The position numbers and the translations under genes were made by a program. Below, in pieces: positions 4,669-30,152 of a DNA stretch of 64,000 bases (its first letter is position 1; each line of letters opens with the position of its first letter). The notes under the pieces are model-generated. The model worked only from the letters and a program-made list of their open reading frames with translations, ran no database searches and had not been told where the DNA came from. This DNA comes from an uncultured Bacteroidales bacterium. GTDB taxonomy: Bacteria; Bacteroidota; Bacteroidia; Bacteroidales; Bacteroidaceae. Location of the stretch: NCBI GenBank assembly GCA_902800305.1, contig CADCDP010000009.1:61734-125733 (forward strand), written 5' to 3'.

Positions 4669-4683
4669 TCCGAACAAAGCGGA

Positions 4684-9736: not shown

Positions 9737-9792
9737 CTTGTTATCTTCTATTTAACCATTTACAAAATTCTATTATCTTCAAGAGGAGGTGA

Positions 9793-10782
9793 TTACGGCA
9801 ATCGCTTCAGCACCACCGTTCTCAACAATATTTCCAGCAACAACACAGCCAAAGCCACGAGGGCAAAAGGCTGGTATAACTCACCTCGGCGACTGAACTG
9901 CTTGACATTGAACTTGGTACGTTCCATCTTGTCGATGTCTTGATAGATGGCATCCAACTCATCATTCTTCTGGGCACGAAAATATTGTCCTCCCGTCTCT
10001 CGCGAAATCTTAGTCATGGTCTGCTCGTCAATCTCGACAGGCAGCATAGCCGTTCCACCCGTCGGGAGGGGATAAGGAGCCATACCATTCCGTCCAATGC
10101 CAATCGTATAGATGCGAATACCATATTTCTTGGCAATCTCAGCAGCCGTCAACGGAGAAATATTACCACTATTGTTCACACCATCCGTCAACAAGATAAT
10201 CACCTTCGACTTCGCCTCACTATCCTTCAGGCGGAGAACAGCATTCATAATACCATCACCAATAGCCGTGCCATCGTCAATAATGCCTCGTGCCGCCATG
10301 TTGCAATCCGCACTATTATAAAGGTTCATCAGTACCACATGGTCTATCGTCAACGGACATTGCGTATATGCTTCACCCGCAAACATCGTCAATCCCATGT
10401 TGTCGTTGGGACGCTTCTCTATAAACCGCTGTGCAATCTCTTTTAACGCCTCCACACGATTGGGCTTAAAATCTTGCGCCAACATAGAAGTGGAGACATC
10501 GACAGCCAACATGATGTCAATACCTTCCACATCCGTATCGCTCCAAGAATGCTTGCTCTGCGGACGTGCTAAGATGCACACCACCAACGAAATAAGCACA
10601 AGGCGCAACAGAAAAGGAAGGTGCATCAAGTATAGGCGAAAAGTCTTTGGAACTCGTACATATTTTGTCGTGTCAGGCACCTTCAACGATGGCAAACTCT
10701 GTTTATATCGGAGCACATACCACACGATGTAGGGCACCAAAGCCAACAACAATAGAAAGAATAAAGGATTCTTAAATTCCAT
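9793..10782 (-). CDS. batA: vWA-domain membrane protein BatA
   Basis: 329 aa. N-terminal TMs, MIDAS AVDVSTSM, ILLTDGVNN and a C-terminal TM. Confidence 0.8.
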   Translation of the reverse strand: MEFKNPLFFLLLLALVPYIVWYVLRYKQSLPSLKVPDTTKYVRVPKTFRLYLMHLPFLLRLVLISLVVCILARPQSKHSWSDTDVEGIDIMLAVDVSTSMLAQDFKPNRVEALKEIAQRFIEKRPNDNMGLTMFAGEAYTQCPLTIDHVVLMNLYNSADCNMAARGIIDDGTAIGDGIMNAVLRLKDSEAKSKVIILLTDGVNNSGNISPLTAAEIAKKYGIRIYTIGIGRNGMAPYPLPTGGTAMLPVEIDEQTMTKISRETGGQYFRAQKNDELDAIYQDIDKMERTKFNVKQFSRRGELYQPFALVALAVLLLEILLRTVVLKRLP

Positions 10783-10783
10783 C

Positions 10784-11875
10784 TTACAACGTCAACATAT
10801 AGATTCTATATCCAATAAATATCAACACACCCAACAACACGATGCTGGCCACCACAATACTGCCAATCAGCACGAACTTAGCCACCTTCGAACGTTTCTC
10901 CTCCACCACAATCACTTCCGGCTGCGGCTTTTGTTCGGGTTCGTCCTGCTTCGTCTGGTTAATATACTCTATGGCATTCACCAGATTGCGGTCATTCTCG
11001 TTGATGAGGGTGCTATACTTCGCAAACTTCACAAGGTCTGCCGTTTGGAAGAGTTCACGCAACTCGGCAATCGCCTCCTCGTCGTTCACTTCCTGCAACC
11101 GCTGGATAATCTCGAACGAAGTCATCTCCATCGCGTTAAAGCCATAACGCTCCTTGATATAATTGCGCAAAGCATCCGTCAGCTGCGTATAATACTCCTT
11201 CGAGTCCTCACTCTGCCAAATCTTCTCCTCCTTGATTTGTTCAATTTTCTGCATGGCCACTTTGTGAGGCGCAAGCCGCTGTTTCGTTCGGATTCGACGG
11301 ATAATCGGCTTATTCGTCCTCAAGCGGTAGATAACGTAAGCCAGCAACGCTGCCAGCAACAACGCCATCACTCCAAACCACATCACCTGTCGCCACTCTG
11401 CCCAATCGAACGGAGGAGCCAATTCTGCCTTGTTTCCAAATATGCTGTCGGCATGGAGGGTGTCTATCTCAAAGGTAAGCACCTTCAACGCCATCTTATC
11501 TTTCGACAAGAAAGACTTACCATCCACCTTCACCTCCACCTGTGGAATCAGATAGAGTGCCGAATCAAAAGAGGTGAAATAGTAACGGCGAGACAACTGA
11601 ACCTGCTTACCATCATTCAGATAGCTCGTATCAGTCTTCTCCGCCCTAACAAACTCCAAACCAGGCACCACCTGCTGCAAGGAATCCCATTCGGGCAATT
11701 CCACCTGCTTCTTCGCATCGGCACTTACTTCAAGCGTCATGCCGATACGCTGACCGATAAAGATGCCAGCAGAGTCTAATTTAGCGTTCACCGTTACTTG
11801 TGCCTTTACTTCCGCAAAAGGCATCAAGCAACAGATTCCCAATATAATATAATACTTCAAAAGCCGCATGGCCAT
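10784..11875 (-). CDS. Membrane protein of the bat operon (DUF4381-like position)
   Basis: 363 aa. Signal peptide, mid-protein TM (VMWFGVMALLLAALLAYVIY) and a C-terminal TM. It lies between the DUF58 and batA genes. No catalytic motif recognised. Confidence 0.55.
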   Translation of the reverse strand: MAMRLLKYYIILGICCLMPFAEVKAQVTVNAKLDSAGIFIGQRIGMTLEVSADAKKQVELPEWDSLQQVVPGLEFVRAEKTDTSYLNDGKQVQLSRRYYFTSFDSALYLIPQVEVKVDGKSFLSKDKMALKVLTFEIDTLHADSIFGNKAELAPPFDWAEWRQVMWFGVMALLLAALLAYVIYRLRTNKPIIRRIRTKQRLAPHKVAMQKIEQIKEEKIWQSEDSKEYYTQLTDALRNYIKERYGFNAMEMTSFEIIQRLQEVNDEEAIAELRELFQTADLVKFAKYSTLINENDRNLVNAIEYINQTKQDEPEQKPQPEVIVVEEKRSKVAKFVLIGSIVVASIVLLGVLIFIGYRIYMLTL

Positions 11876-11934
11876 TCACATTTAGTATTCGTTAAAACGT
11901 CCCATTCATTTCGTTGAACTAAAGGTTCATCACG

Positions 11935-12804
11935 TTAGCTTCTTCGCTTAAACAGGTTCATCAATGCCTTCACATAATCCTCATCGGTACGCACCGAAAT
12001 GTTGTCAATATTGGACTTTGTAAAAGCATTTTTCAACCACGCCTGATGCCCTACCCACCATTCATGATGCGCACGACGAACAGCACCAGAAGACGTGTCG
12101 ATGAAGGTTTCCAAACCAGTTTCTGCATCCAGCATCTTCACGATGCCCACATCGGGCAATTCCATCATGCGGCGGTCGTAAATCTGCAAAGCCACCACAT
12201 CGTGACGACGGTTAGCCACAGTCAACTGACTCGTGTAGTCTTTCGGGTCGAAAAAGTCGCTCAGCAGAAATACTGTACAACGCTTCTTGATGGCGTTCGT
12301 CATAAACTCCACCGCTTGACCCACATCGGTCTTTTGACTATCAGGATGGAAAGTGAGCAGTTCTCTGATGATGAAAAGGATATGCTTTCTTCCCTTCTTC
12401 GGGGGAATGAACTTCTCCACCTTATCAGAGAAGAAGATAACACCAATCTTGTCGTTGTTCTGGATAGCAGAAAAAGCCAACGTTGCTGCAATCTCGGTCA
12501 GCAACTGACGCTTCGACTGCACTTGCGTACCAAAGTCAAGCGAACCGCTGACATCGACCAACAGCATCACCGTCAGCTCACGCTCTTCCTCAAAGACCTT
12601 CACGAAAGGCTTGCCAAAACGAGCCGTGACATTCCAGTCGATGTCGCGCACGTCGTCACCATACTGATACTCGCGCACCTCGCTGAAGGCCATACCCCTA
12701 CCCTTGAAGGCCGAGTGATACTCGCCCGCAAAGATATTGTTCGACAGCCCTTTGGTCTTAATCTCTATTTTCCGGACCTTCTGTAAAAGCTCTTCAGTTT
12801 CCAT
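11935..12804 (-). CDS. DUF58-family protein (vWA-like partner of the MoxR ATPase)
   Basis: 289 aa. SAFKGRGMAFSEVREYQYGDDVRDIDWNVTAR is the characteristic DUF58 signature. Start/stop overlap with the moxR-like gene. Confidence 0.85.
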   Translation of the reverse strand: METEELLQKVRKIEIKTKGLSNNIFAGEYHSAFKGRGMAFSEVREYQYGDDVRDIDWNVTARFGKPFVKVFEEERELTVMLLVDVSGSLDFGTQVQSKRQLLTEIAATLAFSAIQNNDKIGVIFFSDKVEKFIPPKKGRKHILFIIRELLTFHPDSQKTDVGQAVEFMTNAIKKRCTVFLLSDFFDPKDYTSQLTVANRRHDVVALQIYDRRMMELPDVGIVKMLDAETGLETFIDTSSGAVRRAHHEWWVGHQAWLKNAFTKSNIDNISVRTDEDYVKALMNLFKRRS

Positions 12805-13799
12805 TATGGAACCTCTACCTTATTCAAAATCTTACTGATGATTTCTTCGCTGGTCACATTGCTGGCCTCTGCTTCGTAGGTGAGACCAATACGATGACGC
12901 AACACGTCCTGTGCCACGGCTCGCACATCCTCTGGGATGACATAGCCACGATGCTTGATGAAAGCGTAGGAACGGGCAGCAAGAGCCAGATTAATGGAAG
13001 CACGAGGTGAACCACCAAAGCCAATCAGTCCCTTCAAATCTTTCAAGTTATACTTTTCCGGATAACGTGTAGCAAACACAATATCAGCGATGTACTGTTC
13101 TATCTTTTCGTCGAGATAAACCTCACGCACCACCTTACGGGCATCTTCGATTTCGGTCGTTCCCATGATTGGACGAATCTTCTGAGGGTCGCCACCAATG
13201 TTCTGGCGAATAATCTTCTTCTCCTCTTCGAGTTTCGGGTAGTCGATAACCACCTTCAGCATGAAGCGGTCCACTTGTGCCTCTGGCAGTGGATAAGTAC
13301 CTTCCTGCTCGATGGGGTTCTGTGTAGCCAGCACGAGGAAGGGTTTCGGCAATTCAAAGGTAGTCGTTGAAATGGTCACCTGACGCTCCTGCATAGCCTC
13401 TAATAAAGCCGATTGCACCTTGGCTGGCGCACGGTTAATCTCATCGGCCAAGATAAAGTTGGCGAAGATAGGTCCCTTTTTCGACTTAAACTCACCATCT
13501 TTCTGGCTGTAAATCATCGTACCAATCACGTCGGCTGGCAAGAGGTCTGGTGTAAACTGAATACGGCTAAACTGCGCATCAATCAGCGCAGCCAAGGTCT
13601 TGATAGCTTTCGTCTTAGCCAAACCTGGCACACCCTCCAAGAGCACATGCCCATCAGAAAGAAGTCCCAACAACAGGGACTCCACCAAATGCTTTTGACC
13701 GATGATGGCTTGATCCATGCCAGCCATCAGATTGGTCACGAACGCGCTGTGGCGTTCAATTTTTTCGTTCAATTCACGAATGTCAATAGCTTCTGCCAT
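12804..13799 (-). CDS. MoxR-family AAA+ ATPase
   Basis: 331 aa. Walker A GVPGLAKT, Walker B FILADEINRAP, and ATQNPIEQEGTYPLPEAQVDRF typical of MoxR/RavA-type ATPases. Confidence 0.9.
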   Translation of the reverse strand: MAEAIDIRELNEKIERHSAFVTNLMAGMDQAIIGQKHLVESLLLGLLSDGHVLLEGVPGLAKTKAIKTLAALIDAQFSRIQFTPDLLPADVIGTMIYSQKDGEFKSKKGPIFANFILADEINRAPAKVQSALLEAMQERQVTISTTTFELPKPFLVLATQNPIEQEGTYPLPEAQVDRFMLKVVIDYPKLEEEKKIIRQNIGGDPQKIRPIMGTTEIEDARKVVREVYLDEKIEQYIADIVFATRYPEKYNLKDLKGLIGFGGSPRASINLALAARSYAFIKHRGYVIPEDVRAVAQDVLRHRIGLTYEAEASNVTSEEIISKILNKVEVP

Positions 13800-13833
13800 A
13801 TCTGTTTTATAGTTTATATTCTTATTTCGACTA

Positions 13834-13841
13834 CAAAATTA
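13834..13841 (-). promoter_or_regulatory. -7 box TAATTTTG (minus strand) for the moxR-bat operon
   Basis: Plus-strand caaaatta, about 35 nt upstream of the ATG at 13799. Confidence 0.45.
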
Positions 13842-14134
13842 CGACTTTCTCCCCACTTTTTCGCCCTCCCAAATGTGAAAAAACCTTGCATCCCACTCTT
13901 TTTAAGAATAGTTAAAAGTTCACCTGCCTAAAAATGAGTGTTTTCGTTCCATCGTTCAACAAAACACCCCCAAATCATCTTGCTCTTTCGGCACAAACTT
14001 GGAGTCGATTCGCCTCATCTTCCCAATGCTCCAAGCCGAAAAAGCGTCGATGAAGGATGGGAAACCTGTCTGTGTGGAATACCGTATGCCCATCACAATT
14101 CAACGAAGGTAACGAGATTTCGAACTACAGCTAT

Positions 14135-14218
14135 CCTCATAATCGCACCCGTCGGGTACGGTGTGCCGCACCCGACGGGTACGACACGCCGTACCCGACG
14201 GGTGCGACTTTGAGGTAC
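14135..14218. repeat. REP-like palindromic element, copy 1 (three ACCCG-N-CGGGT hairpins inside an outer inverted repeat)
   Basis: cctcataatcgcacccgtcgggtacg...gccgcacccgacgggtacg...gccgtacccgacgggtgcgactttgagg. Closely similar to 46598-46680. Confidence 0.8.
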
Positions 14219-14291
14219 CGAGGTACCTTCCTTGATGATGTACCGCCCTCACAACACTTCGGAGTGAGGACACGCTGAGAGACGCAAGTTT

Positions 14292-15845
14292 TTAAGGCAA
14301 CTTGATGGTTGCCCCTACAGGAACGTTATTGGGGTCGGCAAACTTGTTGGCACGGATAATAGCGTTGACAGAATCCTTTGTACCATAAAAACGTTGAGAA
14401 ATGCGGGTGAGCGACTCGCCTTTCTGCATGATGTAGGTGGCAGGACGCTCTGGCTTCTTTTCTGCCGTTTCCGTCTTCTCCACTGTCTCTGTGTCCGTTT
14501 GCTTTTGTTCCACTTTTACAGAATCCTGCTCTGCAACAGCCGCTTTGTCTTCCTCCTTCACAGACTCTACTTTCTGGACATCCTTTTCTTTTACAGCCTC
14601 AATCGTTTGTATATTTCTTGGCATCCGTTCAACAGATTCTATTGACATAGAAGTTTGATAAAGGAAATAGACGATGACGCCCAATAACAAAATCAATGGA
14701 ATAGCAAACCACGGACTCGATAGAGAAATAAAAGGATAGCCACGACGAGACGAACTGTCATCATCGTCGTCATCATCTTCATCTGGATGCTCCTGCATAT
14801 AACGTTTGAGAGCGGCTTCGCGTCTCTCGGCTATGGACGGTGTAGAGGATGATGCTGGCTGTTCCTCTTCAGCATGAGGCGATGGAGAAGCTGTTTGTTC
14901 CGTTTCTTCCTTGAGAGGTAAAGCCTCCACATTTTCTTCCACCTTTTCGTCATTAGATACTTCAGGCGAAACAGACGTTTCCTCTTCTTCCGTCCCCTCT
15001 TCCGAAGGTTCCTCTTCACTTTCAGGTATCGTATTCGCCTCTAAACGTTCCAACAACTTTTCCAATCGAAGTTTCTCCGAACTGGCTTTACGAGCCTCTT
15101 CGATAGCAGCATCCATTTTCTCTTTGGCTTCTTCGTATTGACGACGCACCTCATCGATGCTCTCAGGAGTGGAAATCAACATATCGATACCACCAAATTC
15201 GTCTTGAGCAGTTTCAACATGTTCGGGAACAGGCACTTGAAGCAGGTCGTCCACTTCCGACTTCTCAGGCACAATTGCAGAAGGAACCTCGGCAAACACG
15301 GCACTCTCAGACAGAACAGTCAAGGGCGTTTCTTCTTCTTTTTGAGGAACTTCCTCTTCCACATCAGGAGTCTCTTCTGGAACAGACACAACAACTTCTT
15401 CTGCAACATTAGCAACAGCTTCTTCCGTAACAGTAGCAACAGCTTCTTCTGCAATAGTAGCAACAGCTTCTTCTGCAACAGTAGCAACAGCCTCTTCCGT
15501 AACGGCAGGTTTTTCTATCTCCACGACCTCCTCAACAACATTTTCCTCCTTAGCATCCTTATTCAAGAAATCAACCACCGCATCCTCTGGCGTGAAAGAG
15601 ACCTTTTTATATCCAGGAATGACGATTCTCTCCCCATTCGTCACATTCACACTTTCGCGACTCTCAACAGACACAAGCTTAAAAACGCCCAATCCCTTCA
15701 CTTTGATGGATTCTTCGCCCATATAGAGAGCCTCAACAATCGTATCGAAGAATGCTTTGGAGAATGTTTCTGCCACTTTCTTCGATACACCAGCCTTCAA
15801 CGTGAGCGCATCGACGATATTCTGAAAAGACAATTTTTCGTTCAT
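14292..15845 (-). CDS. HU-fold DNA-binding domain / acidic repeat linker / TM / LysM fusion protein
   Basis: 517 aa. The N-terminal 90 aa are HU/IHF-like (KVKGLGVFKLVSVESRESVNVTNGERIVIPGYKKVSFTP). A long E/V/A-rich region follows, then a D-run, then a TM (WFAIPLILLLGVIVYFLY). The C-terminus is LysM-like (YIMQKGESLTRISQRFYG...VPVGATIKLP). Confidence 0.75.
   Translation of the reverse strand: MNEKLSFQNIVDALTLKAGVSKKVAETFSKAFFDTIVEALYMGEESIKVKGLGVFKLVSVESRESVNVTNGERIVIPGYKKVSFTPEDAVVDFLNKDAKEENVVEEVVEIEKPAVTEEAVATVAEEAVATIAEEAVATVTEEAVANVAEEVVVSVPEETPDVEEEVPQKEEETPLTVLSESAVFAEVPSAIVPEKSEVDDLLQVPVPEHVETAQDEFGGIDMLISTPESIDEVRRQYEEAKEKMDAAIEEARKASSEKLRLEKLLERLEANTIPESEEEPSEEGTEEEETSVSPEVSNDEKVEENVEALPLKEETEQTASPSPHAEEEQPASSSTPSIAERREAALKRYMQEHPDEDDDDDDDSSSRRGYPFISLSSPWFAIPLILLLGVIVYFLYQTSMSIESVERMPRNIQTIEAVKEKDVQKVESVKEEDKAAVAEQDSVKVEQKQTDTETVEKTETAEKKPERPATYIMQKGESLTRISQRFYGTKDSVNAIIRANKFADPNNVPVGATIKLP
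15395..15509. repeat. In-frame 24-bp tandem repeat (about 4.8 units) encoding (EEAVATVA)n within the HU-LysM gene
   Basis: Units cttcttctgcaacagtagcaacag at 15395, 15419, 15443 and 15467, plus a partial fifth unit. Confidence 0.85.
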
Positions 15846-19514: not shown

Positions 19515-19588
19515 TGATCCGGTTGGGATTCGAACCCAAGACCCACAGCTTAGAAGGCTGTTGCTCTATCCAGCTGAGCTACCGGACC
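19515..19588 (-). tRNA. tRNA-Arg (anticodon TCT)
   Basis: The minus strand reads GGTCCGG-TA-GCTC-AGCTGGATA-GAGC-A-ACAGC-CTTCTAA-GCTGT-GGGTC-TTGGG-TTCGAAT-CCCAA-CCGGATC-A. This folds into a cloverleaf with one G-U pair in the acceptor stem and a TCT anticodon in a 7-nt loop. CCA is not encoded. Confidence 0.9.
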
Positions 19589-19845: not shown

Positions 19846-20316
19846 CTAAAATTCACCAGCATAATAACTCTGAGCGATGTATGGAGAAGGCTCATAGTAG
19901 GCACTGCTATTATAATTGTCGATGGTCTCACAAATCGGATTGTTATAAACCCGAAGGATAGCGTCAGCAAAGTCTTCGCCATCCTGTAGCGTGGAAAGTA
20001 TCAAACGTTTATACACTTTCCCCATCTGTGTCTCGGTCGGGATACGGTTACAAAGTTCCGTATTCACAGCAGTCACGTCATAAAGCCCTTTCTGCAAGTC
20101 AAACTCCTCTATCCATTCAGCAGCCACAGCCAAAGGATTCTCCGAATGCAGCACACTGGCAAGCGACAACTTCTTCGCCAGCTCATCATGTCCCATCCTA
20201 TTCGCCACATATTTATTAGGTTGTTTCAACTGACGGGCAACCCTTTCAATCATGTAGCAAACAAAATACAAGTCATTCACTGTGACCTCTTCATCTGGGA
20301 AATACACATTCTTCAT
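19846..20316 (-). CDS. Hypothetical protein, DUF3791-like (tentative), partner of the DUF3990-like gene
   Basis: 156 aa. Its start overlaps the stop of the upstream gene by 4 nt. The family call is a weak recollection only (LASVLHSENPLAVAAEWIEEF region). Confidence 0.4.
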   Translation of the reverse strand: MKNVYFPDEEVTVNDLYFVCYMIERVARQLKQPNKYVANRMGHDELAKKLSLASVLHSENPLAVAAEWIEEFDLQKGLYDVTAVNTELCNRIPTETQMGKVYKRLILSTLQDGEDFADAILRVYNNPICETIDNYNSSAYYEPSPYIAQSYYAGEF

Positions 20317-20798
20317 AGGCTGTAACTCCTTTCATACTTGAGGGTCTTCAATGCCCTATTGGTACAGAACACTATCTGATGAGTCGGGTACTTGAACTTA
20401 ACCAGCACCCAGAAAGCCTCCCTCGTGATGCTACCATCCATAAAGTCCTCTACATAATCCCATATCTGGTCATCAGCCATAGGACCTTCCACAATGTCAT
20501 AGTCATGCTTCACGCCCCGACGACATGCCACCACAAAATCAAGCCACTCATCTGTCATCTCGGGGAATGAAAGAACATTCATCTTCTCATCAATGGTATA
20601 TTGATACACAGAAACAACATGTTCAAACCTTTTCGTCAAAGCCCATTTCTGCGCCTGCTTCTCCAAATTGGTACAATAAAATCCATAGCCAAAGTCCTTA
20701 TTAAAGCCTCTGACAAGAATTTCAGGCACTTCAACTTTCACGTTGCTGCCATGATATAATGTAACACTTTCTTTCATCAAGGGCAAAGGTACAAACAT
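20313..20798 (-). CDS. DUF3990-like protein
   Basis: 161 aa. LYHGSNVKVEVPEI...NKDFGYGFYCTNLEKQAQKWA matches my recollection of the DUF3990 N-terminal signature. Confidence 0.55.
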   Translation of the reverse strand: MFVPLPLMKESVTLYHGSNVKVEVPEILVRGFNKDFGYGFYCTNLEKQAQKWALTKRFEHVVSVYQYTIDEKMNVLSFPEMTDEWLDFVVACRRGVKHDYDIVEGPMADDQIWDYVEDFMDGSITREAFWVLVKFKYPTHQIVFCTNRALKTLKYERSYSL

Positions 20799-21019: not shown

Positions 21020-21283
21020 TCACCATTCTCTACCCCAGCAAGCCTCTGGGTCATCCTCAAAAGCGTCACGATAACTGCACCCCCAATCACGAGTTTCTCG
21101 ATAGGCTTCACGCATCTGATTCATCAATGAACGCCATTCAGAAATTGTATCATGACCAATCTTTGGCAAACAGGGGTCCTCTTCCTCAACATACGAGTCA
21201 AGATAGTCCCAAATGTAGTCCATATCCTTCAGACCCATTCCTGGTTTCATCTCCTTCTTTGCTGGAATTTTCATTGTACTCAT
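21020..21283 (-). CDS. Small acidic, Trp-rich hypothetical protein (87 aa) co-transcribed with the aspartic-protease-like gene
   Basis: 12-nt gap after the upstream gene. No recognisable motifs. Confidence 0.4.
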   Translation of the reverse strand: MSTMKIPAKKEMKPGMGLKDMDYIWDYLDSYVEEEDPCLPKIGHDTISEWRSLMNQMREAYRETRDWGCSYRDAFEDDPEACWGREW

Positions 21284-21295
21284 GTTCTCATCAAA

Positions 21296-22195
21296 TTAAA
21301 TGGTTTGACACTTACGTTTATATATCACTTTCTGGGCAAAGTCCAACACCCAGCCTTGCTTGGCCATAAAGGGCGAGCCAATCAGCCCTTCGAGGGGCTG
21401 ACACTCTTGTTCATGCACATATCCCTCCATGATTGGATGGTTAATAACAAAAAATGAATCATGAAAGAGAACGCCTTCCGTACCATTTGCCCGAAGCGTC
21501 AGGAGCTGAAAACGCACATTAGCACTTACAACATCAGACCTCCCTTTCAACCCGTTCAAAGCGTTATTCTCACCCGTGTATTCACAATTCAAATGGCATT
21601 GACTGATGCAATCAGTTGACACAACATTTGCAATACTGCCAGTATCGGCAATGACTGCCACATCCTTGTCCTCATGATGGATGGCCAGCACAGGAACACC
21701 ATAGTTCTTCAGTCCAATTTCCATCGGGAACATGAACTCACAATCACTTGAACAGAGATTCGCATGCGACACATTTGAGGTGTGCACGGTAAAGGTACTG
21801 TAATCAATGGCAAGTCCGTGCTTTTGCATAAATTCATTACCCAACAAGCCAATGATCGGCACATTATCGATAGTACCAAGGTGGTAATCCTTTTTGATGC
21901 CAAAATCCTCACTAAATTGTTTACCACCAAAAGCAAACGAAAAGTGTACATTGTCGGCAATCACTACTTCGCCCACACAATCTGTTATCTCCAACTCAGA
22001 ATCTTCATATCTGCACAATTCGCCAATATATCTATCTGCTGAGTTCGAAAGGAAATTAACATTACTCCCAGAATCTAGCATCATAAATCCTGTATGCTCC
22101 ACTGCATCCTTATCCACATAATACACCTCAATGAATGGATTCAAGTCGCCTTCCACTCTAAACATTTCCACTTTGATTTCTTTTTCTTTTTTCAT
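21296..22195 (-). CDS. Tandem (two-lobe) retropepsin-like aspartic protease
   Basis: There are two D-S/T-G-S motifs (FMMLDSGSNVNF and AVIADTGSIANV). Each is followed about 70-100 aa later by an I/L-G-x-x-F motif (IIGLLGNEFMQKHGLAIDY and LIGSPFMAKQGWVLDF). I moved the start to Met14 (22195) because a TACCTTTG box at 22222-22229 lies inside the longer ORF. Confidence 0.6.
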   Translation of the reverse strand: MKKEKEIKVEMFRVEGDLNPFIEVYYVDKDAVEHTGFMMLDSGSNVNFLSNSADRYIGELCRYEDSELEITDCVGEVVIADNVHFSFAFGGKQFSEDFGIKKDYHLGTIDNVPIIGLLGNEFMQKHGLAIDYSTFTVHTSNVSHANLCSSDCEFMFPMEIGLKNYGVPVLAIHHEDKDVAVIADTGSIANVVSTDCISQCHLNCEYTGENNALNGLKGRSDVVSANVRFQLLTLRANGTEGVLFHDSFFVINHPIMEGYVHEQECQPLEGLIGSPFMAKQGWVLDFAQKVIYKRKCQTI

Positions 22196-22221
22196 GTTGC
22201 GCTCGTTTTGGTTTGACGAGG

Positions 22222-22229
22222 CAAAGGTA
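22222..22229 (-). promoter_or_regulatory. -7 box TACCTTTG (minus strand) for the protease-like gene
   Basis: Plus-strand caaaggta, about 27 nt upstream of the ATG at 22195. Confidence 0.5.
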
Positions 22230-22268
22230 CACATTGTGGATTATTGTTCCTAACGATATAGTATCAAG

Positions 22269-22295
22269 AATGGTTCTTTTCTTTGAAGAACCATT
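22269..22295 (-). terminator. 10-bp perfect hairpin directly after the WYL gene stop
   Basis: aatggttctt-ttctttg-aagaaccatt, 6 nt downstream of the stop at 22301-22303. No clear U-tract. Confidence 0.5.
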
Positions 22296-22300
22296 TCCCA

Positions 22301-23371
22301 CTATCCATAATAGCCAGACATGGTCTTCACAGACTCTCTTATCTTGTTTACCAAACTTTCTGGCGACATCACTCTCAGTTCCTCTCCATAAGTCAGAATC
22401 TTACCTCTCAACTCACGATTATGCTCCACATTTAGTACATACTCACCATAAGTGCCATCATCATGATTTCCATACATCTTCGTTTCTTTTTGGGAATGGT
22501 GAAGTTTCTTGGATTTCATCAACTCATGCATATATAGCGACTGTGTTCTTATGACAACAGGCTCAACACCATTAGTATCTTTCTCATGACTCACCCCTAC
22601 GATGTTCGCAAAGTAATCTTTATATGTGCCAACAGGTGCAGGCAGATATTCTATGCCATCAACAATCTGTGGTTCCGTCTCAATCCTGTCAAGGGCAAAA
22701 TTCGTTACTTTTGTTTTTTTGTCAATATAACCAAACAAGAACCAGCGTCCATTATATTCTTTCAAAAAATGCGGGTGCATAATGATAGCTTCCGGATCTT
22801 TCCCATACGGATGATAAACAAACGAAAGCACGTGCCGATCTGTAATATGCTCGTTTAATATAGGAAGACGTTCTATACCTCGCAATTCTTGCTCCATATT
22901 TGTTTGTATATGAGCAATGCCTGCATCTTTCTCATGTCTCATTTCTAATAGTAATTGGGTGTTCTCAAAGAAGTACGAGAACCATTCCATTGGGAATATA
23001 CCAGAAGACTGCTTGCAGAAACGCACGTAATCTTGGAGAGTACTTTTAACGAACACTTGCTTTTCTTCAAAAAAAGGATCGTCTGACTTTCCTAAATATC
23101 GGAACGTCTTTCCTTTGCCGTATTTGCTTTCCACCACACATCCTGGTTCATAAGCATCCAACGCATTCTTTACACACAGAAAGGCTTTGACTAACTTTCT
23201 ATAATGCTCTTCATTAGACAAAGAATGACTTTTCAGATAATCATCGTCTACAGATGGCTTATAGATTTGATAAACATCCTTATAAGACACCTCCTTCCTT
23301 GTCATCAGCAAACGATATAGTATCCCAATAAACCGGCCTTTTATACCTTCGCAGAGAAACATATTGCTCAT
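22301..23371 (-). CDS. WYL-domain transcriptional regulator (BrxR/CapW-like architecture)
   Basis: 356 aa. The central HPHFLKEYNGRWFLFGYIDKKTKVTNFALDRIE is a WYL-domain signature. The flanking N- and C-terminal regions fit an HTH-WYL-WCX layout. Confidence 0.75.
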   Translation of the reverse strand: MSNMFLCEGIKGRFIGILYRLLMTRKEVSYKDVYQIYKPSVDDDYLKSHSLSNEEHYRKLVKAFLCVKNALDAYEPGCVVESKYGKGKTFRYLGKSDDPFFEEKQVFVKSTLQDYVRFCKQSSGIFPMEWFSYFFENTQLLLEMRHEKDAGIAHIQTNMEQELRGIERLPILNEHITDRHVLSFVYHPYGKDPEAIIMHPHFLKEYNGRWFLFGYIDKKTKVTNFALDRIETEPQIVDGIEYLPAPVGTYKDYFANIVGVSHEKDTNGVEPVVIRTQSLYMHELMKSKKLHHSQKETKMYGNHDDGTYGEYVLNVEHNRELRGKILTYGEELRVMSPESLVNKIRESVKTMSGYYG

Positions 23372-23375
23372 TTTC

Positions 23376-24497
23376 TTACTGGCTCTCGAAATTTAAAAAA
23401 TTAGATTCCATATCTCCATAGATAAATCTTTTTGTATCCGTTTCAGACCTATCGCTAGAACCACATTTATTAATCACGTGTTGAATGTCACGAATAACAT
23501 TCAAGAAAACTAAATAATTATCTCTATCAGAAAGTGAACCGACTGTTGCCCATAACCCTTTAGAGGAATACTTATTATCTTTATCAAAGTAAGTAAATGA
23601 ATTTCCGCTAGCTATCATACGATAATTTGTTATAATATAACGGTCGTGCTGTTCATCTTTTATTGTAGAATCCCTTTTCTTTAGTTCTTTAATGTTAGGT
23701 TTTATAAATGTAACTTTAGCATGATATTCTGTATTTATGTGTTTTTTTATAACATCAAACTCAGGAGAAACAAGGCTGGGAAATTCCTGGTAATATTGAG
23801 TATAAAAAACGATGTTAACCCCTTTGTTCCCATTGCACAATGAATCTATAATCGCATAGATGTTCGTTTTGTATGGATGTTCTTCTTTTTTAGAGAACAC
23901 ATATGGGTCTGAAATAAGAATATCTGTACAAGGAATACCACAATATCCTTCCTTCATCGCCACCCGTCCTTCTTCATCTCTTAAATAATATATCTTAGAA
24001 GGTATGTATTTCTCGTTTATGAATAATTTTTGAAGCGTTTCAACTTCAAACGTTGGAATCGAAGATAGCAACCCCAATTGTTTAATCTTATTGCATTCAT
24101 ATTTCTTTTTACTTTGAAATACGACAGATGTATACCACCTATAATGTTTATCTTCTAATGTGAGCATAGAATCATCTCTAGTACTAAAACCTGGAGATTT
24201 AAGAGAGAATTCTTTCTCGTATTCAATAGAATGTCCATGAGTGCCCTCTGTCATCATACCCATCCAGTGACTTATTTTCACTCTTTTCTCTCTTTCTCTA
24301 TCATCTAATTTATCAATTTGCTCCCTAGAACAATAATCTATCAGTTCTTTTTCAGAAAAAGAAAAGAACAAATCACATTGTTCTTGCAACATATTATCAA
24401 TATCGCGATACTCCCGACATATCCGATTATTGCAATCCATCACCCTGTTTATATAAGATTTCAAATTATCTTTATCAAAATATACATCCATAATCAA
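23376..24497 (-). CDS. Uncharacterised 373-aa protein, the candidate effector partner of the upstream ATPase
   Basis: Start overlaps the ATPase stop by 4 nt (ATGA). AT-rich. I see no HNH, Toprim or PD-(D/E)xK motif. The ordered motifs ILISDPYVF ... VNIVFYTQ ... HDRYIITNYRMIASGNSF resemble the PLD-superfamily MIT_C-type pattern. That is recollection, not a search result. Confidence 0.6.
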   Translation of the reverse strand: MIMDVYFDKDNLKSYINRVMDCNNRICREYRDIDNMLQEQCDLFFSFSEKELIDYCSREQIDKLDDREREKRVKISHWMGMMTEGTHGHSIEYEKEFSLKSPGFSTRDDSMLTLEDKHYRWYTSVVFQSKKKYECNKIKQLGLLSSIPTFEVETLQKLFINEKYIPSKIYYLRDEEGRVAMKEGYCGIPCTDILISDPYVFSKKEEHPYKTNIYAIIDSLCNGNKGVNIVFYTQYYQEFPSLVSPEFDVIKKHINTEYHAKVTFIKPNIKELKKRDSTIKDEQHDRYIITNYRMIASGNSFTYFDKDNKYSSKGLWATVGSLSDRDNYLVFLNVIRDIQHVINKCGSSDRSETDTKRFIYGDMESNFLNFESQ

Positions 24498-26500
24498 AAG
24501 ACTTGTATTGCTAATTCTGTTGCTTCATCAAAGAATCCAAACCCAAAACGTTCATAGAATCTTCCATCTTTACAATACCTCATATCGTAAGGCTTCGTTT
24601 TCTTATCATTCTTAGAAGGGAAATAATAAGTCCGAAAGGGAATATCATTTATATTCCCTCCATTCTTGCAATATTCCTTTACCAAGACTTGGGACTTTCT
24701 TATAATATACTCAGAATGAGTCTCCACAAGAATCTTTAGAGTTGCATTATGGCTTTGGTTTAAATAGACCTTGTCTATTATGACCCGATGATTTCCAGTC
24801 GAAATCTCAGCAAACAAATCAGATAGGTCTATTAAAAAGTTAGCAATATGGCTTTGTAACATTGGATGAAGATTTTGTTCAGGCTCTTCTATCAGAACAA
24901 TGGGGGAATATGCATTCCCTGCATTTGCATCAACAATGACCATCAGTTGCAAACAGAGGATAAAGAAATGTATTGTACCAGATCCCATGTCACAAAGATC
25001 CGTTTCTTTTCCGTAATCATTTATTATTTTGACCATGTATGAATTACTTGTATGGTCTTTTCGGATAATAAAATCCTGCCCCATTTCCATTCTGTCAAGC
25101 CATTTGTTAACGAATTGATGGTAAATTTTTTCATTATTATACCAATTATTCTCATAATAACACCTAATGGCTCCCTCCACTATTTCAGCAGGCATAAAAC
25201 TATTAATCTGACGAATGATGTTAATTGCATCATATGGTTCCATGGAATTTGGAAATAGTGGGTTCTCATCATATATTTTTTTTGCAATGGGGGCAAACAC
25301 ACGTAATCTTGTAACTGCACTACTTGTTGTTACAGCCTTATCAACCGATGAATACATATCATTTGCAGCATCCTGTTGCGATTCGGAAAGACTTTTGTCT
25401 ACGTATAAGGTATTCATCAGAGGAATCATGAGAGTGTCAAAACCTCCAGAATGTTCAGATTCTTCTGGAGTGTCTTTGTCAAGTTCATTTGTAAGGTACG
25501 TTTTTGATAAAAGATCTGCAATTTCAATTGTTGCAGATTCCTTATTAAAGACAAACCTAGAAGCATTACTAATGTTACACAAAACAATCTCTTCAATAAT
25601 TGCATTGTTCTTTATCATCAATGAGATATTCCACAGTCCAGAAGTTATTCTCAACTCTATAGGTTGCGAAGAAGGTGTATAAATGTTATGGTACTTTTGA
25701 TAATTTTCTGCTTGCTTTTCATATTTATCACTTTCGTCAAAGCGAAAGAATGGTTGTCCTTCGGATGTGAAGCTTAAATTGTACAAATTACTTGTCAACA
25801 TCTCTATAGCATCCAGCAATGTGGATTTTCCTGCATTGTTCTTTCCCACCAAGAAAGTAATTCTACTTGACAAGTCAATCTTTGCCGCTTCTATATATTT
25901 TTTAAAATTTGTCACTTCAATTTTATCAATGGAGTTGGGACTTTCTTCAATTTTTTTGTTGTTCATCTCAGACAACTCATTCCTTAATTTTTCCAAGAAA
26001 ATACCAACTGTTACACCATTTATTTCGCTTGGTATATGTTTTCTATTCTTTCCATAAAAATTCCACAAGATATCATATTGAGGTGCTACAAGTTCTTCTA
26101 TTTTCACTTTATCATCAATCTTGTACATACCTATGATTCCCCATTTCTTCTTACCTTCAATAATCCTATATACACGTGCAAGACCTCCATCAAAGCCGTC
26201 AATGAAATCATATTCATGTGGAATATTGATTTCTTTAACATCATTAAAGCCTTTTATCTCAATTACACCTCGAACATAATTATCACTTTTTTCTGAATAT
26301 TTGTTGTAGGTCGCAACAATTGGCAAGCCATACCGTGTGTTACATCTTGATGGAAGTAAAGACGTATAACCATTCTTTTTTGCTGCAACAAGAATATACA
26401 CATCAGCTTCATTACCTGTTTTCTTTTTTCGGAGACCGTAATAAGACCCTCCGTTATAGGTAACAATGCTATTTTCTTCCAATTTGTTTATTTCTTTCAT
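24494..26500 (-). CDS. WG-repeat N-terminal domain fused to an ABC-type (AAA_15/DUF3696-like) ATPase
   Basis: 668 aa.
- Walker A: FLVGKNNAGKSTLLDAIE
- Signature-like motif: DMGSGTIHFF
- Walker B: PIVLIEEPEQNLHP
- H-loop: VETHSEYIIR
- C-terminal motif: FGFGFFDEATE
- N-terminal region: YDFIDGFDGGLARVYRIIEGKKKWGIIG, which resembles WG beta-repeats. Confidence 0.8.
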   Translation of the reverse strand: MKEINKLEENSIVTYNGGSYYGLRKKKTGNEADVYILVAAKKNGYTSLLPSRCNTRYGLPIVATYNKYSEKSDNYVRGVIEIKGFNDVKEINIPHEYDFIDGFDGGLARVYRIIEGKKKWGIIGMYKIDDKVKIEELVAPQYDILWNFYGKNRKHIPSEINGVTVGIFLEKLRNELSEMNNKKIEESPNSIDKIEVTNFKKYIEAAKIDLSSRITFLVGKNNAGKSTLLDAIEMLTSNLYNLSFTSEGQPFFRFDESDKYEKQAENYQKYHNIYTPSSQPIELRITSGLWNISLMIKNNAIIEEIVLCNISNASRFVFNKESATIEIADLLSKTYLTNELDKDTPEESEHSGGFDTLMIPLMNTLYVDKSLSESQQDAANDMYSSVDKAVTTSSAVTRLRVFAPIAKKIYDENPLFPNSMEPYDAINIIRQINSFMPAEIVEGAIRCYYENNWYNNEKIYHQFVNKWLDRMEMGQDFIIRKDHTSNSYMVKIINDYGKETDLCDMGSGTIHFFILCLQLMVIVDANAGNAYSPIVLIEEPEQNLHPMLQSHIANFLIDLSDLFAEISTGNHRVIIDKVYLNQSHNATLKILVETHSEYIIRKSQVLVKEYCKNGGNINDIPFRTYYFPSKNDKKTKPYDMRYCKDGRFYERFGFGFFDEATELAIQVF

Positions 26501-26524
26501 ATCTGCTTGATTTCAAATTTTTCT

Positions 26525-26532
26525 GCAAAATT
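26525..26532 (-). promoter_or_regulatory. -7 box TAATTTTG (minus strand) for the ATPase operon
   Basis: Plus-strand caaaatta, about 25 nt upstream of the ATG at 26500. Confidence 0.5.
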
Positions 26533-26954
26533 ACAGAAAGACATTTATATCTGCGTCATTTTATGGAAATCAAATAGTTCTTTTTTATCAGGAACCATTT
26601 TTATATTTCTTCTTCTTTTTCCTTTGACAGCAGATAGTCGCTCTACCAATCGCATCTTACCGTCAGCAGCTTGAAGTTTCAACTGGTTACAATTTGTCAC
26701 CGTTTCATTTCCATTTTCTCCGAGGCAGTTGTATTGCTTGTTTCTTGGTCATGTTTTGTTGCTTTCAGATTGTTATTAATTTTCCGTGTGCAAATATAAT
26801 ATGTCTATCGAAGAAAAACAAATAGTAAGGGAGGAAAATACAATAATCCCATAAGAAAAACTGCTATGAACCATCTTATCGCAGCACCTGGTAGTGCGAG
26901 GAAGGTGGAGAATGGCCTTGTAGAGAAGTGGTGAGTGGAAGCAATGGCTTAGTT

Positions 26955-27101
26955 GGTTACAGTTACAGTTGTTACAGTTAAAAAAAGGGGTATGGTATTC
27001 CTTTAAATACTTTATAAATTATTAATATATAAATAGTTATATATATAATATAAGGGATGGCACCCCTCAAAAAAACAACTGTAACAACTGTAACTGTAAC
27101 C
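26955..27101. repeat. Perfect 25-bp inverted repeat (ggttacagttacagttgttacagtt / aactgtaacaactgtaactgtaacc) flanking a 97-bp very AT-rich spacer
   Basis: 26955-26979 is the exact reverse complement of 27077-27101. Each arm holds three GTTACAG-like iterations. Confidence 0.9.
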
Positions 27102-27452: not shown

Positions 27453-28106
27453 TTATACTTGCGAGATGTCTTCCTCGTCATCCATAAAGAACTTCTCTGA
27501 TTTTGCCTTTGAAAAATGCACACCTTCGGCCAACTTTTCGTAAAATACACTACGTGCTAATTTCTCTTTCAAGAACATACACTTCGTACCTTTGCTATCG
27601 GAACGGAAATTCATGCTATGGTCTATTCCCATGTTTTTGGCTACAGCCAGCGCATCTTGGTTGGCTCCAATATAGGTGAAAAGCCAGTTCGTTTTTTTCA
27701 GTTCCTCCACTAATTGAAGGATTTGCTGACGATTCCACTCGATGGAAGAGTTCTCGTACCCGTCTGTAATGATGGTCACCAGTACATTGTCATCCTCTTC
27801 GATATGACGGCGCAAGTGAGTGATGGAATTGCCCATCGCATCGTAGAGCGGTGTGTTGTCTGTCGGCTGGTAATCCCTTTCGTTGAAGTCTGGCACATTT
27901 GCAATGGGCATGCGGTCATACACGGTGGTGATGCTGCTACCATTAAACACAACCAGGCTTAGCAATTGTTCTTGATTCGCATTCTTCTCTTGCGCAGAAC
28001 GGATGGTCTGAACGGTTTCTACTACGCCAGCAATGGCTTCTTGGCGAATGGCATACATGGAGCCAGAGGCATCCAATACGATTAAGTTATAAATTTTCTG
28101 TTTCAT
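27453..28106 (-). CDS. Stand-alone von Willebrand factor A (vWA) domain protein
   Basis: 217 aa. MIDAS-type LIVLDASGSM at the N-terminus and VTIITDGYEN. No signal peptide or TM. Confidence 0.75.
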   Translation of the reverse strand: MKQKIYNLIVLDASGSMYAIRQEAIAGVVETVQTIRSAQEKNANQEQLLSLVVFNGSSITTVYDRMPIANVPDFNERDYQPTDNTPLYDAMGNSITHLRRHIEEDDNVLVTIITDGYENSSIEWNRQQILQLVEELKKTNWLFTYIGANQDALAVAKNMGIDHSMNFRSDSKGTKCMFLKEKLARSVFYEKLAEGVHFSKAKSEKFFMDDEEDISQV

Positions 28107-28430: not shown

Positions 28431-28856
28431 TTATACATTTTTCTTCAAGTAGATATAAGCGGGGTATGTGCCGAGCACGAACAGGGTGACGGGGCATAGC
28501 CAGATTTTTCTGGTAAATCCGTCTATTCCCAAGACCTCGTAATGGGCACCATCTGTCAGCGAGTGGTCGAGACGGCGCAATTCCGCATATCCTTCGAGTT
28601 GCTTACGCTTGGTCGAGGGCATCACTTTGACGCGTGTCTCCAAACCGTCGTCAGAGAGGTGGGCACAAAGTTCATCTGCTCCAGCCACCATCATCAGATT
28701 GTGGTGGTCAAAAGGCCAGTTGGGGAAATCGACATACCAACAGCCATCTGATTCATGATTGAACTTAAGTGCATACTCACTCTTTTTGCCAAATACGCTC
28801 TTCTGAATCAGAGAGGCCGCACTCTTCAGATTTTTCATTGAATAATCCATTTTCAT
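28431..28856 (-). CDS. Hypothetical protein (141 aa) with a C-terminal hydrophobic segment
   Basis: Preceded by its own TAACTTTG box. CWYVDFPNWPFDHHNLMMVAGADELC is a distinctive block, but I cannot assign a family. Confidence 0.5.
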   Translation of the reverse strand: MKMDYSMKNLKSAASLIQKSVFGKKSEYALKFNHESDGCWYVDFPNWPFDHHNLMMVAGADELCAHLSDDGLETRVKVMPSTKRKQLEGYAELRRLDHSLTDGAHYEVLGIDGFTRKIWLCPVTLFVLGTYPAYIYLKKNV

Positions 28857-28994: not shown

Positions 28995-30152
28995 TTATTC
29001 CCAAGAAACCATCTCTCTTGGCAACAATATCTTCTTAGGTTCTCCCCTTCCACCAGTGATGTAGTAGTTACGGGCAATGCTGTCATCAAATTCTCGCAAG
29101 AAGGCCTGCTTGATGCGAGAACATTTCTCGTTGATGGAATTGCGTGTGGGGTCGGTCACGTCATCAATGCTCCTACGAATGTCTTCACGGCTATCACGTC
29201 CGGACATCAACTCGTACATACGCAACAGTTCTTTTCGATAGTCGGGCAGATCTGAAAATGAAATACCTTCTGGATGACGCAAGAAGAGCAGATAAAGTGC
29301 TTTTGACAATGGATGCATCCTAATCTCCATATTGTTGTAATCCGTCAGGAAAATGCGACCACAGCGAACTGTCATTCGGCTTAATTGCTTGGTTGGCTTA
29401 AACAAGCGCTGAAGGGCTACTTCGCCCACTCCGCTCTGCCTGAGTCGCTCTACCAGAATCTGTACTTCGCTCATCATGTCCTCCACACTTGGCTCATCCG
29501 GCATCTCAATGGGAGCAGAAGTCTCCCGTCTGCTTTGTTCTGCGGAATCATTTCGCATGAACCTCGACAACGAATGCCAAAAAGACGGACGTTCGAAGGC
29601 AGCTTGTTCACATTGTACTTCACAGTTTTTAGGAACACCAGCTTCATCATAAAAGACAGCAGCAGCACTTCCTACATCAAAGAGGTTTCTGGCTACACCA
29701 TGCTCACTCACATACCTTGCAATGAATTCATCAGGGCAATCGTCGAAAGATCTGGGTATTGGGGTATAAGCATAGGTATAGGTATCTTCCTCGTCGAAAT
29801 CCTCACCCATGTATTGGATGAGTCCTGGTTCCATACGTTCTCTATCGTAATCGGCAACCACATATTCCAACAAATCGCGGTCATCATAGGGGATATACGG
29901 GACGTGGTCATTGGAACCTGCCTGAGGATTGAAGTAATGGTAGATTTTGGCGAGATCCATGTCGCATGCAATCTTGGGCAAGAAACAAAATTCCAATCCA
30001 CCACTATGGAATTTACTCTCAATATACTTATAGTGTTGATAAAGAGCATCGTAATAGAGCTTCCTGCTTATACCTGTGACATCAAAATAGATGACCACAT
30101 TTGTCTTTGGCTTAAAAGGCAGTCGTTCCTTGTAAAAACTGATGTATTGCAT
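28995..30152 (-). CDS. Hypothetical protein (385 aa); the C-terminal third may be a helix-turn-helix-like module
   Basis: Coherent ORF with its own promoter box. The C-terminus LSKALYLLFLRHPEGISFSDLPDYRKELLRMYE...NSINEKCSRIKQAF looks like a DNA-binding/regulatory module. That is inference only. Confidence 0.55.
   Translation of the reverse strand: MQYISFYKERLPFKPKTNVVIYFDVTGISRKLYYDALYQHYKYIESKFHSGGLEFCFLPKIACDMDLAKIYHYFNPQAGSNDHVPYIPYDDRDLLEYVVADYDRERMEPGLIQYMGEDFDEEDTYTYAYTPIPRSFDDCPDEFIARYVSEHGVARNLFDVGSAAAVFYDEAGVPKNCEVQCEQAAFERPSFWHSLSRFMRNDSAEQSRRETSAPIEMPDEPSVEDMMSEVQILVERLRQSGVGEVALQRLFKPTKQLSRMTVRCGRIFLTDYNNMEIRMHPLSKALYLLFLRHPEGISFSDLPDYRKELLRMYELMSGRDSREDIRRSIDDVTDPTRNSINEKCSRIKQAFLREFDDSIARNYYITGGRGEPKKILLPREMVSWE

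Follow-up and report, generated by a model that had tools for sequence, protein, structure and literature searches.

Menshen, the described defense system closest to the locus studied here, is built from three proteins (Li et al. NAR 2025, PMC12065111). NsnA carries a ParB-DUF262 and a ParBDB domain, NsnB is an OLD-type ABC ATPase with DUF3696, a GxG signature and an EN Walker B, and NsnC joins an N-terminal inactive-PIN (inPIN) domain to a variable C-terminal effector. One of its effector classes, phospholipase D-type (PLD) PB-PLD1, is MIT_C-like, with a conserved Asp or Glu after β2 and an HDR motif before β5. In the AlphaFold 3 (AF3)-predicted NsnB4-NsnC2 assembly, the N-domain of NsnC is clamped by the C-terminal tails of the NsnB dimer, analogous to Septu and PARIS. 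The Menshen census (1,997 loci) was seeded on the DUF262 domain of NsnA, and the paper contains no mention of WYL proteins (PMC12065111). One example has been validated experimentally, and no mechanism has been solved. Here, we describe a three-gene locus, ORF1 to ORF3, in a 64,000-nucleotide stretch of an uncultured Bacteroidales genome (GCA_902800305.1, contig CADCDP010000009.1, positions 61,734 to 125,733; the window hereafter), in which an NsnB-NsnC-like pair appears together with a WYL-domain gene and without NsnA.

The three open reading frames (ORFs) lie on the minus strand, and the ORF table agrees with the coordinates and lengths given in an earlier sequence-only reading of this DNA: ORF1 at 24494..26500 (668 amino acids), ORF2 at 23376..24497 (373 amino acids from the first start, 371 from the ATG at 24491), and ORF3 at 22301..23371 (356 amino acids, 353 from the next ATG). 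That reading held that the operon matched no named system, which proved too strong. The ATPase and effector are the counterparts of NsnB and NsnC in Menshen, the effector being of the PB-PLD1 class, and one relative is arranged as canonical Menshen. We conclude that the locus is a real NsnA-less variant of Menshen, probably defensive, and not a categorically new system. On balance, we favor the view that the three genes form an anti-phage, abortive-infection-type module whose core is homologous to NsnB-NsnC and which lacks the NsnA sensor. The trio is not a chance arrangement, because it recurs in independent contigs and the adjacency of the ATPase and ORF2 recurs in distant loci.

ORF1 is, judging from its profile matches, an OLD/AAA_15-type ABC ATPase with an NsnB-like core at residues ~191-668. 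The AAA_15/AAA_21 assignment made earlier was borne out by Pfam (E = 4e-24), the AAA_15 (4.4e-24) and AAA_21 (5.6e-18) matches lying at residues 191-600. The top PADLOC match, AriA (1e-23), covers the same residues as the generic Pfam AAA_15 model (191-600), and the best system-specific match is NsnB, the Menshen ATPase (6.9e-23). GajA and PtuA models matched mostly the N-terminal P-loop region, some adding a second short stretch or a weaker full-length match. Against solved structures, the nearest matches of the ORF1 family profile were an OLD-family nuclease (4e-13) and Septu/retron PtuA (9e-11); the profile also matched Rad50 and SMC heads.

All of the peptide motifs that had been quoted for the three proteins were found in the translations; in ORF1, these are the Walker A GKNNAGKST at residue 219, the Walker B IVLIEEPEQNLHP, ETHSEY, the C-terminal GFGFFDE, and KWGIIG. 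An alignment of ORF1 with 26 relatives revealed invariant residues in Walker A (G219/K225/S226), E538-E539-P540-E541 within a Walker B pattern hhhEEPE..LHP, and E593-T594-H595-S596, and an invariant or near-invariant D504-x-G506-x-G508 in the place of the ABC signature. The C-terminal tail PYxMxYRxDGxFxNxFGxGFFDEAxNLAFxIL is common to ORF1 and all 26 relatives, including the NsnA-linked ATPase described below.

ORF1 differs from most of its family by an N-terminal extension of ~190 amino acids (25931..26500, minus strand), a possible WG-repeat-like β domain and candidate sensor module. The KWGIIG peptide on which a WG repeat had been proposed is present, but the WG_beta_rep match stays below threshold (3.2e-4; 21.1 bits versus the Pfam gathering score of 25.6). 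The extension is limited to the window and two close relatives (L004 and L006), Walker A starting at residues 28-52 in the other 24 ATPases, and it has nearly no homologs, the sole outside relative being a 293-amino acid PF14903 protein (E = 4e-3).

ORF2 itself matches nothing in the Pfam, PADLOC, NCBIfam, or PHROGs hidden Markov model libraries, and none of ORF1-3 has HNH, Toprim, or UvrD matches in Pfam or PADLOC. A word-indexed homolog search returned 6 to 10 relatives of ORF2, all without names, the six in the database being at least 70% identical. An exhaustive HMMER profile search recovered 285 cluster representatives of the family, 119 of them at E ≤ 1e-10 and mostly 320-350 amino acids long. 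RefSeq labels the homologs "hypothetical protein", and no database source examined gives them a name. The translation contains ILISDPYVF, VNIVFYT, and HDRYIITNYRMIASGNSF. Across an alignment of 118 sequences, no substitution occurs at H282 or R284, and conservation is 90% or more at D190, D195, N210, N226, D283, T288, N289, Y290, and G296. By this conservation, the core of the family is built of the DPY...HDR residues to which the sequence-only reading had pointed. The conserved pocket is D190/D195...H282-D283-R284-Y285. The canonical HxK(x)4D motif is not found in the family; its invariant is H-D-R (H282, D283, R284), the MIT_C/PB-PLD1 variant. Among the 118 members, 14 match Pfam MIT_C (best E 2.2e-6) and 5 match PADLOC NsnC.

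The structural model of ORF2 agrees with these family matches. AlphaFold (AF2), given the 118-sequence alignment, produced a model with a predicted local distance difference test score (pLDDT) of 92.0 and a predicted template modeling (TM) score of 0.91; a model built from a shallow alignment of 6 close homologs reached a pLDDT of 38.6 and was discarded. The first Foldseek matches of the model in the PDB were MITD1 chains (4a5z/2ymb; E 1.5e-4, probability 1.00, target-normalized TM 0.60), followed by TrmBL2, the PLD3/PLD4 exonucleases, the NgoAVII R-protein, and PLD1/2. Viral structures gave weak PLD-fold matches, the best at E 0.016. Searched by sequence, the ORF2 family profile found nothing in the PDB, its best match (E 0.12) being spurious. 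The MIT_C-type PLD fold first proposed from motif order alone is therefore upheld by the MIT_C matches in the family and by the Foldseek ranking of the model. We model ORF2 as an N-terminal α/β domain (~1-185), presumably compatible with a PIN-like Rossmannoid, followed by a C-terminal MIT_C-type PLD-fold domain (~186-371). The profile matches of its family and its own model assign ORF2 to PB-PLD1, the effector class reported in 2025 among Menshen NsnC proteins.

ORF3 is, by its domain matches, a WYL-WCX protein with a diverged N-terminal ~160 amino acids. Pfam identifies WYL at residues 169-231 (1.2e-11) and WCX at residues 298-351 (2.2e-6), and the WYL-core motif YNGRWFLFGY is present in the translation. 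Both domains were found in ORF3 and in 19/19 relatives examined, which are 330-370 amino acids in size. A profile of 20 linked WYL proteins matched PafB/C (6e-10), 8tp8 (1e-5), BrxR (0.014), and CapW (0.035) in the PDB, with alignments spanning the WYL-WCX part only; 8tp8 is annotated as a "DeoR-family transcriptional regulator", and we take it to be DriD. An N-terminal profile of the family found nothing relevant in the PDB, and residues 1-80 of ORF3 could not be aligned to the N termini of distant relatives (hhalign E = 0.21). These relatives have an RRTIxxDL-like motif, which to our eye looks like part of a helix-turn-helix (HTH). Thus, of the earlier description of ORF3 as a WYL regulator, the WYL-WCX part stands, and "regulator" is unsupported, as no HTH is detectable.

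The ATPase-effector pair is always adjacent and co-varying, and a related WYL-WCX gene accompanies it in most loci. Close relatives (L004-L006, 70-76% identity) keep the order ATPase, ORF2, WYL, retropepsin-like gene, 87-amino acid ORF. We also assembled 29 distant loci, 27 from a one-genome-per-species scan based on a 21-sequence alignment and 2 from RefSeq plasmids, among them Prevotella pE2-28. The 27 genome loci come mostly from Bacteroidales and Flavobacteriales, with three from Clostridia; no phage-borne ORF2 homologs were found. An ORF1-like ATPase gene ends 1-9 nucleotides before the ORF2-like gene in 26/26 genome loci with upstream DNA and on both plasmids. Of the 26 genome loci with ORF2 called, 17 have an ORF3-like WYL gene upstream and in the same orientation, directly adjacent in 13 of the 17; it is also upstream in L030 (ORF2 not called; read from the ORF table) and in Prevotella pE2-28, giving 19/29 in total. 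The downstream position of the WYL gene, which had been pointed out as distinctive, is true of the window but is a quirk of its narrow subfamily, the family norm being upstream. This subfamily is peculiar in three ways: the downstream WYL gene, the diverged WYL N terminus, and the extra 190-amino acid ATPase domain. Distance-matrix co-variation (Mantel) was significant for all three pairs of proteins (ORF1-ORF2, r = 0.66; ORF1-ORF3, r = 0.53; ORF2-ORF3, r = 0.48; each p = 0.0002), and the correlations persist without the close subfamily.

An NsnA-like gene stands directly upstream of the ATPase in one locus only, L018 of Polaribacter sp. R77954, which has the canonical Menshen gene order. Its product (715 amino acids, 4108-6255) matches GmrSD_N/DUF262 (4.5e-29) and has a DGxQR motif. 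In the effector tree, the L018 protein groups within a clade of flavobacterial effectors that includes those of L016 (55% identity; no partner), L022 (46%; WYL upstream), and L024 (45%; no partner). The L018 NsnA-like protein also ends in a C-terminal Schlafen AlbA_2 domain (3.6e-17).

Type I restriction-modification (R-M) genes are frequent neighbors. The order hsdM-hsdS-hsdR follows directly behind the effector, on the same strand, in 9/29 distant loci (L010, L014, L016, L018, L020, L022, L024, L036, and L037), the region concerned lying at about 8000-15000 in each, and an HsdM-like methyltransferase lies behind the effector in two more (L013 and L019). Other downstream genes include a NERD-UvrD helicase in L015 and L021. 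L013 holds a second ORF1-like ATPase (544 amino acids, E = 4e-16) with a 337-amino acid downstream gene at 11447-14091, 2.5 kb past the first pair.

The defense reading is supported by the location of the locus in an AT-rich island beside a tRNA gene, by PDC-type neighbors, by hsdMSR in nine relatives, and by plasmid copies. As to mechanism, an ORF1 oligomer may bind ORF2 through its N-terminal α/β domain and keep its only PLD domain monomeric and inactive. A phage cue would then shift the nucleotide state of the ATPase, by ATP binding or hydrolysis; in the window's subfamily, the cue could be read by the extra N-terminal β-rich domain of ORF1, by the WYL domain, or by both. ORF2 would be released or repositioned, two PLD domains could dimerize into a composite active site, and this site would cut nucleic acid, most likely DNA, halting the infection. 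The WYL protein might repress the operon in the absence of a nucleic-acid ligand, in the manner of BrxR and CapW, or might act as a ligand-sensing subunit in place of NsnA. Our confidence in any single step of this scheme is much lower than in the overall picture.

Several observations weigh against a defensive NsnB-NsnC-type module. ORF2 itself stays below both Pfam MIT_C and PADLOC NsnC, which only the 14/118 and 5/118 relatives reach, and no significant Foldseek match was obtained over its N-domain (residues 1-185). Likewise, DUF3696, the tail domain of NsnB, was undetected in ORF1 (E ≤ 0.1) and weak (0.006) in 2/27 ATPases, and the Walker B is EE in all members of the ATPase family, where NsnB is reported to have EN. 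Searches for an HTH in ORF3 and its family, by Pfam on 20 members, by hhalign, and by the N-terminal profile against the PDB, were all negative, and the Mantel correlations are confounded by common host phylogeny. MITD1 is a membrane-binding protein and is not known to be an enzyme; because this canonical MIT_C protein binds membranes, catalysis by ORF2 is not guaranteed. Finally, we infer the defense role of the ORF2 family from its context.

The neighborhoods also permit the system to be the two-gene ATPase-effector pair alone, with the WYL protein a generic BrxR-type island regulator, for example of the adjacent type I R-M operon. We regard this as possible, although not the likelier account. 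In seven loci, the surrounding 5-8 kb contain no WYL gene (L016, L017, L018, L024, L031, L033, and L037), unrelated genes separate the WYL gene from the ATPase in five others (L008, L009, L013, L019, and L036), and BrxR-family WYL regulators sit upstream of many unrelated defense systems, type I R-M included (PMC9122601). However, the linked WYL proteins are a single coherent family (E = 6e-10 to 5e-28 versus ORF3 in distant loci), whose distances correlate with those of the ATPase (r = 0.39 to 0.53, p ≤ 0.002); moreover, the WYL gene of the window's subfamily lies 4-13 nucleotides behind ORF2 with no R-M nearby, and the N terminus of ORF3 is not detectably an HTH. A bolder version of the three-gene module, which we hold to be doubtful, would make the WYL-WCX protein the replacement for NsnA, a nucleic-acid-sensing subunit that physically gates the MIT_C-type PLD nuclease and is not a transcription factor; the window's subfamily would then have lost the HTH, coupled the gene translationally behind the effector, and fused a WG-like sensor to the ATPase, within a distinct, unnamed, Bacteroidota-wide system often found beside type I R-M. 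The same R-M adjacency raises the question of whether the pair guards the R-M system, silent while it is intact and set off when a phage brings anti-restriction proteins, on the model of PrrC/EcoprrI. The nine hsdM-hsdS-hsdR loci and the two with an HsdM-like methyltransferase would fit such a role, as would the sensing of Ocr by the OLD-type ABC ATPase of PARIS (summarized in PMC12839542), but the window copy has no R-M gene in its 64 kb, many relatives also have none, and the adjacency may reflect mere clustering in defense islands. We consider guarding unlikely.

Two further explanations concern what the effector does and whether the locus serves defense at all. MITD1 is a lipid-binding PLD-fold domain, and its chains are the best structural matches of ORF2; PLD1/2 phospholipases and phosphatidylserine synthase are among the Foldseek matches, and poxvirus envelope lipases top the viral library (E = 0.016). 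ORF2 might accordingly be no nuclease, and instead bind or hydrolyze membrane phospholipids like MITD1 and kill by membrane damage. This appears quite unlikely, as PLD-fold nucleases (the PLD3/4 5' exonucleases and the NgoAVII R-protein) score equally well, an Asp plus D-R-Y pocket is the proven nuclease site in DruE, all cited partners of OLD-type ABC ATPases are nucleases, and the ORF2 translation has no obvious hydrophobic or amphipathic membrane segment. A function outside defense, in housekeeping or in mobile-element maintenance, for example as a repair ATPase-nuclease paired with a PafBC/DriD-like regulator of the DNA-damage response, strikes us as very improbable. PafB/C and DriD are DNA-damage regulators, PafB/C and 8tp8 are the closest solved relatives of the WYL family by sequence, and the ATPase profile does match Rad50 and SMC heads. 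Against this, the genes are patchily distributed, lie in an AT-rich island, occur on plasmids, and have R-M or PDC neighbors; the closest specific matches of the ATPase are the defense proteins NsnB, OLD, and PtuA; and the effector family also occurs in an NsnA-containing, Menshen-arranged operon.

The layout of the operon stands as first drawn, with small corrections. The junction of ORF1 and ORF2, read earlier as an ATGA overlap, has the sequence TTGA, and the start of ORF2 in homologs and in database gene calls is the ATG at 24491 (MDVYF...), 2 nucleotides past the ORF1 stop. With the ATG at 23371 as the start of ORF3, the gap to ORF2 is 4 nucleotides, as stated earlier; it becomes 13 nucleotides with the next ATG, which the database gene calls use. 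A promoter-like box, TAATTTTG, is indeed present, although at 26526..26533 (minus strand), one base from the position first given; it fits TAnnTTTG, the Bacteroidetes -7 promoter consensus, lies 26 nucleotides 5' of the ORF1 start codon, and is a consensus match only. A second TAnnTTTG-type box, TATATTTG, occurs at 26791-26798 (minus strand), ~290 nucleotides 5' of ORF1. The hairpin reported behind ORF3 is real: the stem-loop at 22269..22295 (minus strand) begins 5 nucleotides past the ORF3 stop and has a 10-bp core stem, and folding of 22255-22305 gave a ΔG of -14.9 kcal/mol (z = -3.55 versus shuffles). There is no U-tract behind the stem-loop, and a terminator scan gave no call there; it is possibly a terminator or attenuator that does without a U-tract.

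Upstream of ORF1, 952 bp of non-coding DNA precede a vWA-like gene. This region contains a perfect 25-bp inverted repeat, GGTTACAGTTACAGTTGTTACAGTT, at 26955-26979 and 27077-27101, with a 97-nucleotide AT-rich spacer, 455 bp 5' of ORF1. Its geometry is inverton-like, and contig L003 terminates exactly at the repeat. An inverton reading is unsupported, because the orientation is the same in 3/3 other assemblies and no TAnnTTTG promoter motif lies inside.

The locus sits in a genomic island of low GC content. The AT-rich trough noted earlier was confirmed, at 34% GC versus 47-50% elsewhere; 1-kb windows over 22001-27000 range from 33.6 to 38.4%, versus 46-55% across most of the 64 kb. One flank of the island has tRNA, ribosomal-protein, and ftsY genes, and the other has thioredoxin-like and PGI genes. 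The tRNA gene at its edge (19515-19588, minus strand; Rfam 69 bits) is consistent with a tRNA-adjacent integration hotspot. Among contigs with an identical flanking thioredoxin-like protein, each one long enough to judge carries the same island. The proposed defense-island context gained support from PDC-M10 and PDC-M08B-like neighbors and the flanking tRNA gene, as well as from the type I R-M adjacency in relatives. The neighboring island genes described next are on the minus strand. Downstream of the trio, an overlapping pair consists of a DUF3990 gene (161 amino acids, 19846-20316) and a 156-amino acid partner (20313-20798), which match the PADLOC candidate system PDC-M10A/B at 6e-78 and 3e-77. 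A 312-amino acid tandem retropepsin-like protein (21296-22234) has a PDC-M08B-like PADLOC match (2.7e-10) and a weak Pfam Asp_protease_2 match, and an 87-amino acid ORF (21020-21283) lies downstream of it. This retropepsin-like and 87-amino acid pair is kept directly behind the WYL gene in close relatives only, and L004 has a second retropepsin-like gene copy upstream of the ATPase. The upstream island genes encode the vWA-like protein (217 amino acids, 27453-28106; DxSxS motif, weak Pfam vWA matches), a DUF6717 protein (28431-28856), and a 385-amino acid protein without a family (28995-30152). The window contains no R-M gene anywhere in its 64 kb. It also lacks NsnA: no homolog of the L018 NsnA-like protein was found, the sole ORF with DGxQR is a spurious 102-amino acid frame (38402-38707), and neither ORF1-3 nor the seven flanking island proteins have a PADLOC NsnA match.

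Together, these data indicate that an NsnB-NsnC(PB-PLD1) core circulates without NsnA; in Bacteroidota, a dedicated WYL protein usually accompanies it, and type I R-M genes often follow immediately downstream. Such NsnA-less variants were invisible to the Menshen census because it was seeded on NsnA, and PADLOC 2.0, Pfam, NCBIfam, and RefSeq give the module no name. What is new here is the NsnA-less, WYL-linked arrangement, for which we found no name or description in the literature and databases searched; the ATPase-effector pairing was known already. Specialists would expect the modularity of an OLD-type ABC ATPase plus nuclease, and the exchange of NsnA for WYL, the R-M adjacency, and the single-domain effector provide testable handles. 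If functional, the module would add a common defense system to gut and rumen Bacteroidales and, with its naturally varying upstream partner (NsnA, WYL, or none), help to tell whether that partner senses or merely regulates. It would also supply a small single-domain model for the nuclease status of MIT_C-type "HDR" PLD domains, with a bearing on BrxL, DruE, and human MITD1.

Compared with PARIS, Septu, and Gabija, the locus shares the combination of an OLD-type ABC ATPase with a predicted nuclease effector, probably held or regulated by an ATPase oligomer. ORF2 differs in being neither Toprim/DUF4435 (AriB, GajA-fused) nor HNH (PtuB), the locus has no partner helicase of the UvrD type, and PADLOC gave no AriB, PtuB, or GajB match for ORF2. 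Membership in these three systems is rejected, because the effector fold, being PLD-like, is the wrong one. ORF3 resembles BrxR/CapW and PafBC/DriD in its WYL and WCX domains and in size, and most relatives' genes lie upstream of, and co-directional with, a defense operon. It departs from them in having no detectable HTH and in being the last gene of the window's operon, and its similarity to BrxR/CapW is marginal (E 0.014-0.035).

Among MIT_C-type PLD proteins, ORF2 shares the fold and the HDR(Y)-plus-Asp pocket with MITD1 and with the C termini of BrxL and DruE. Its PLD domain is fused to an α/β adaptor, and not to an MIT, Lon-like, or helicase module as in MITD1, BrxL, and DruE. MITD1 dimerizes, and DruE has two PLD domains per chain, whereas ORF2 has one. 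In DruE, the helicase-nuclease of Druantia, two MITD1-like PLD domains build a working nuclease site from Asp1740, His1830, Asp1917-Arg1918-Tyr1919, and His1999/Arg2001; D1740A kills ssDNA cleavage, and D1740A, D1917A, and R1918A kill defense (bioRxiv 10.64898/2026.05.13.724313). The D190/D195 and H282-D283-R284-Y285 residues of ORF2 resemble this pocket, a likeness drawn by residues and without superposition.

The closest likeness is to Menshen. In both, an ABC ATPase gene is followed, here after 1-9 nucleotides, by that of a two-domain effector of ~320-370 amino acids; the C-terminal domain of ORF2 is MIT_C-like, with an acidic residue and HDR as in PB-PLD1; and ORF1 has the GxG signature reported for NsnB. 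NsnB is also the best system-specific match of ORF1, five ORF2-family members match NsnC, and one member, that of L018, belongs to an NsnA-like operon. The differences are the absence of NsnA, with a WYL-WCX gene instead (upstream in most relatives, downstream in the window), and an ORF1 without detected DUF3696, with a Walker B of EE and not EN and an extra 190-amino acid N-terminal domain. Because NsnA, the defining criterion, is missing, the window locus is not a Menshen operon by definition, yet its profile matches and the model of ORF2 indicate that it carries an NsnB-NsnC-like transducer-effector core.

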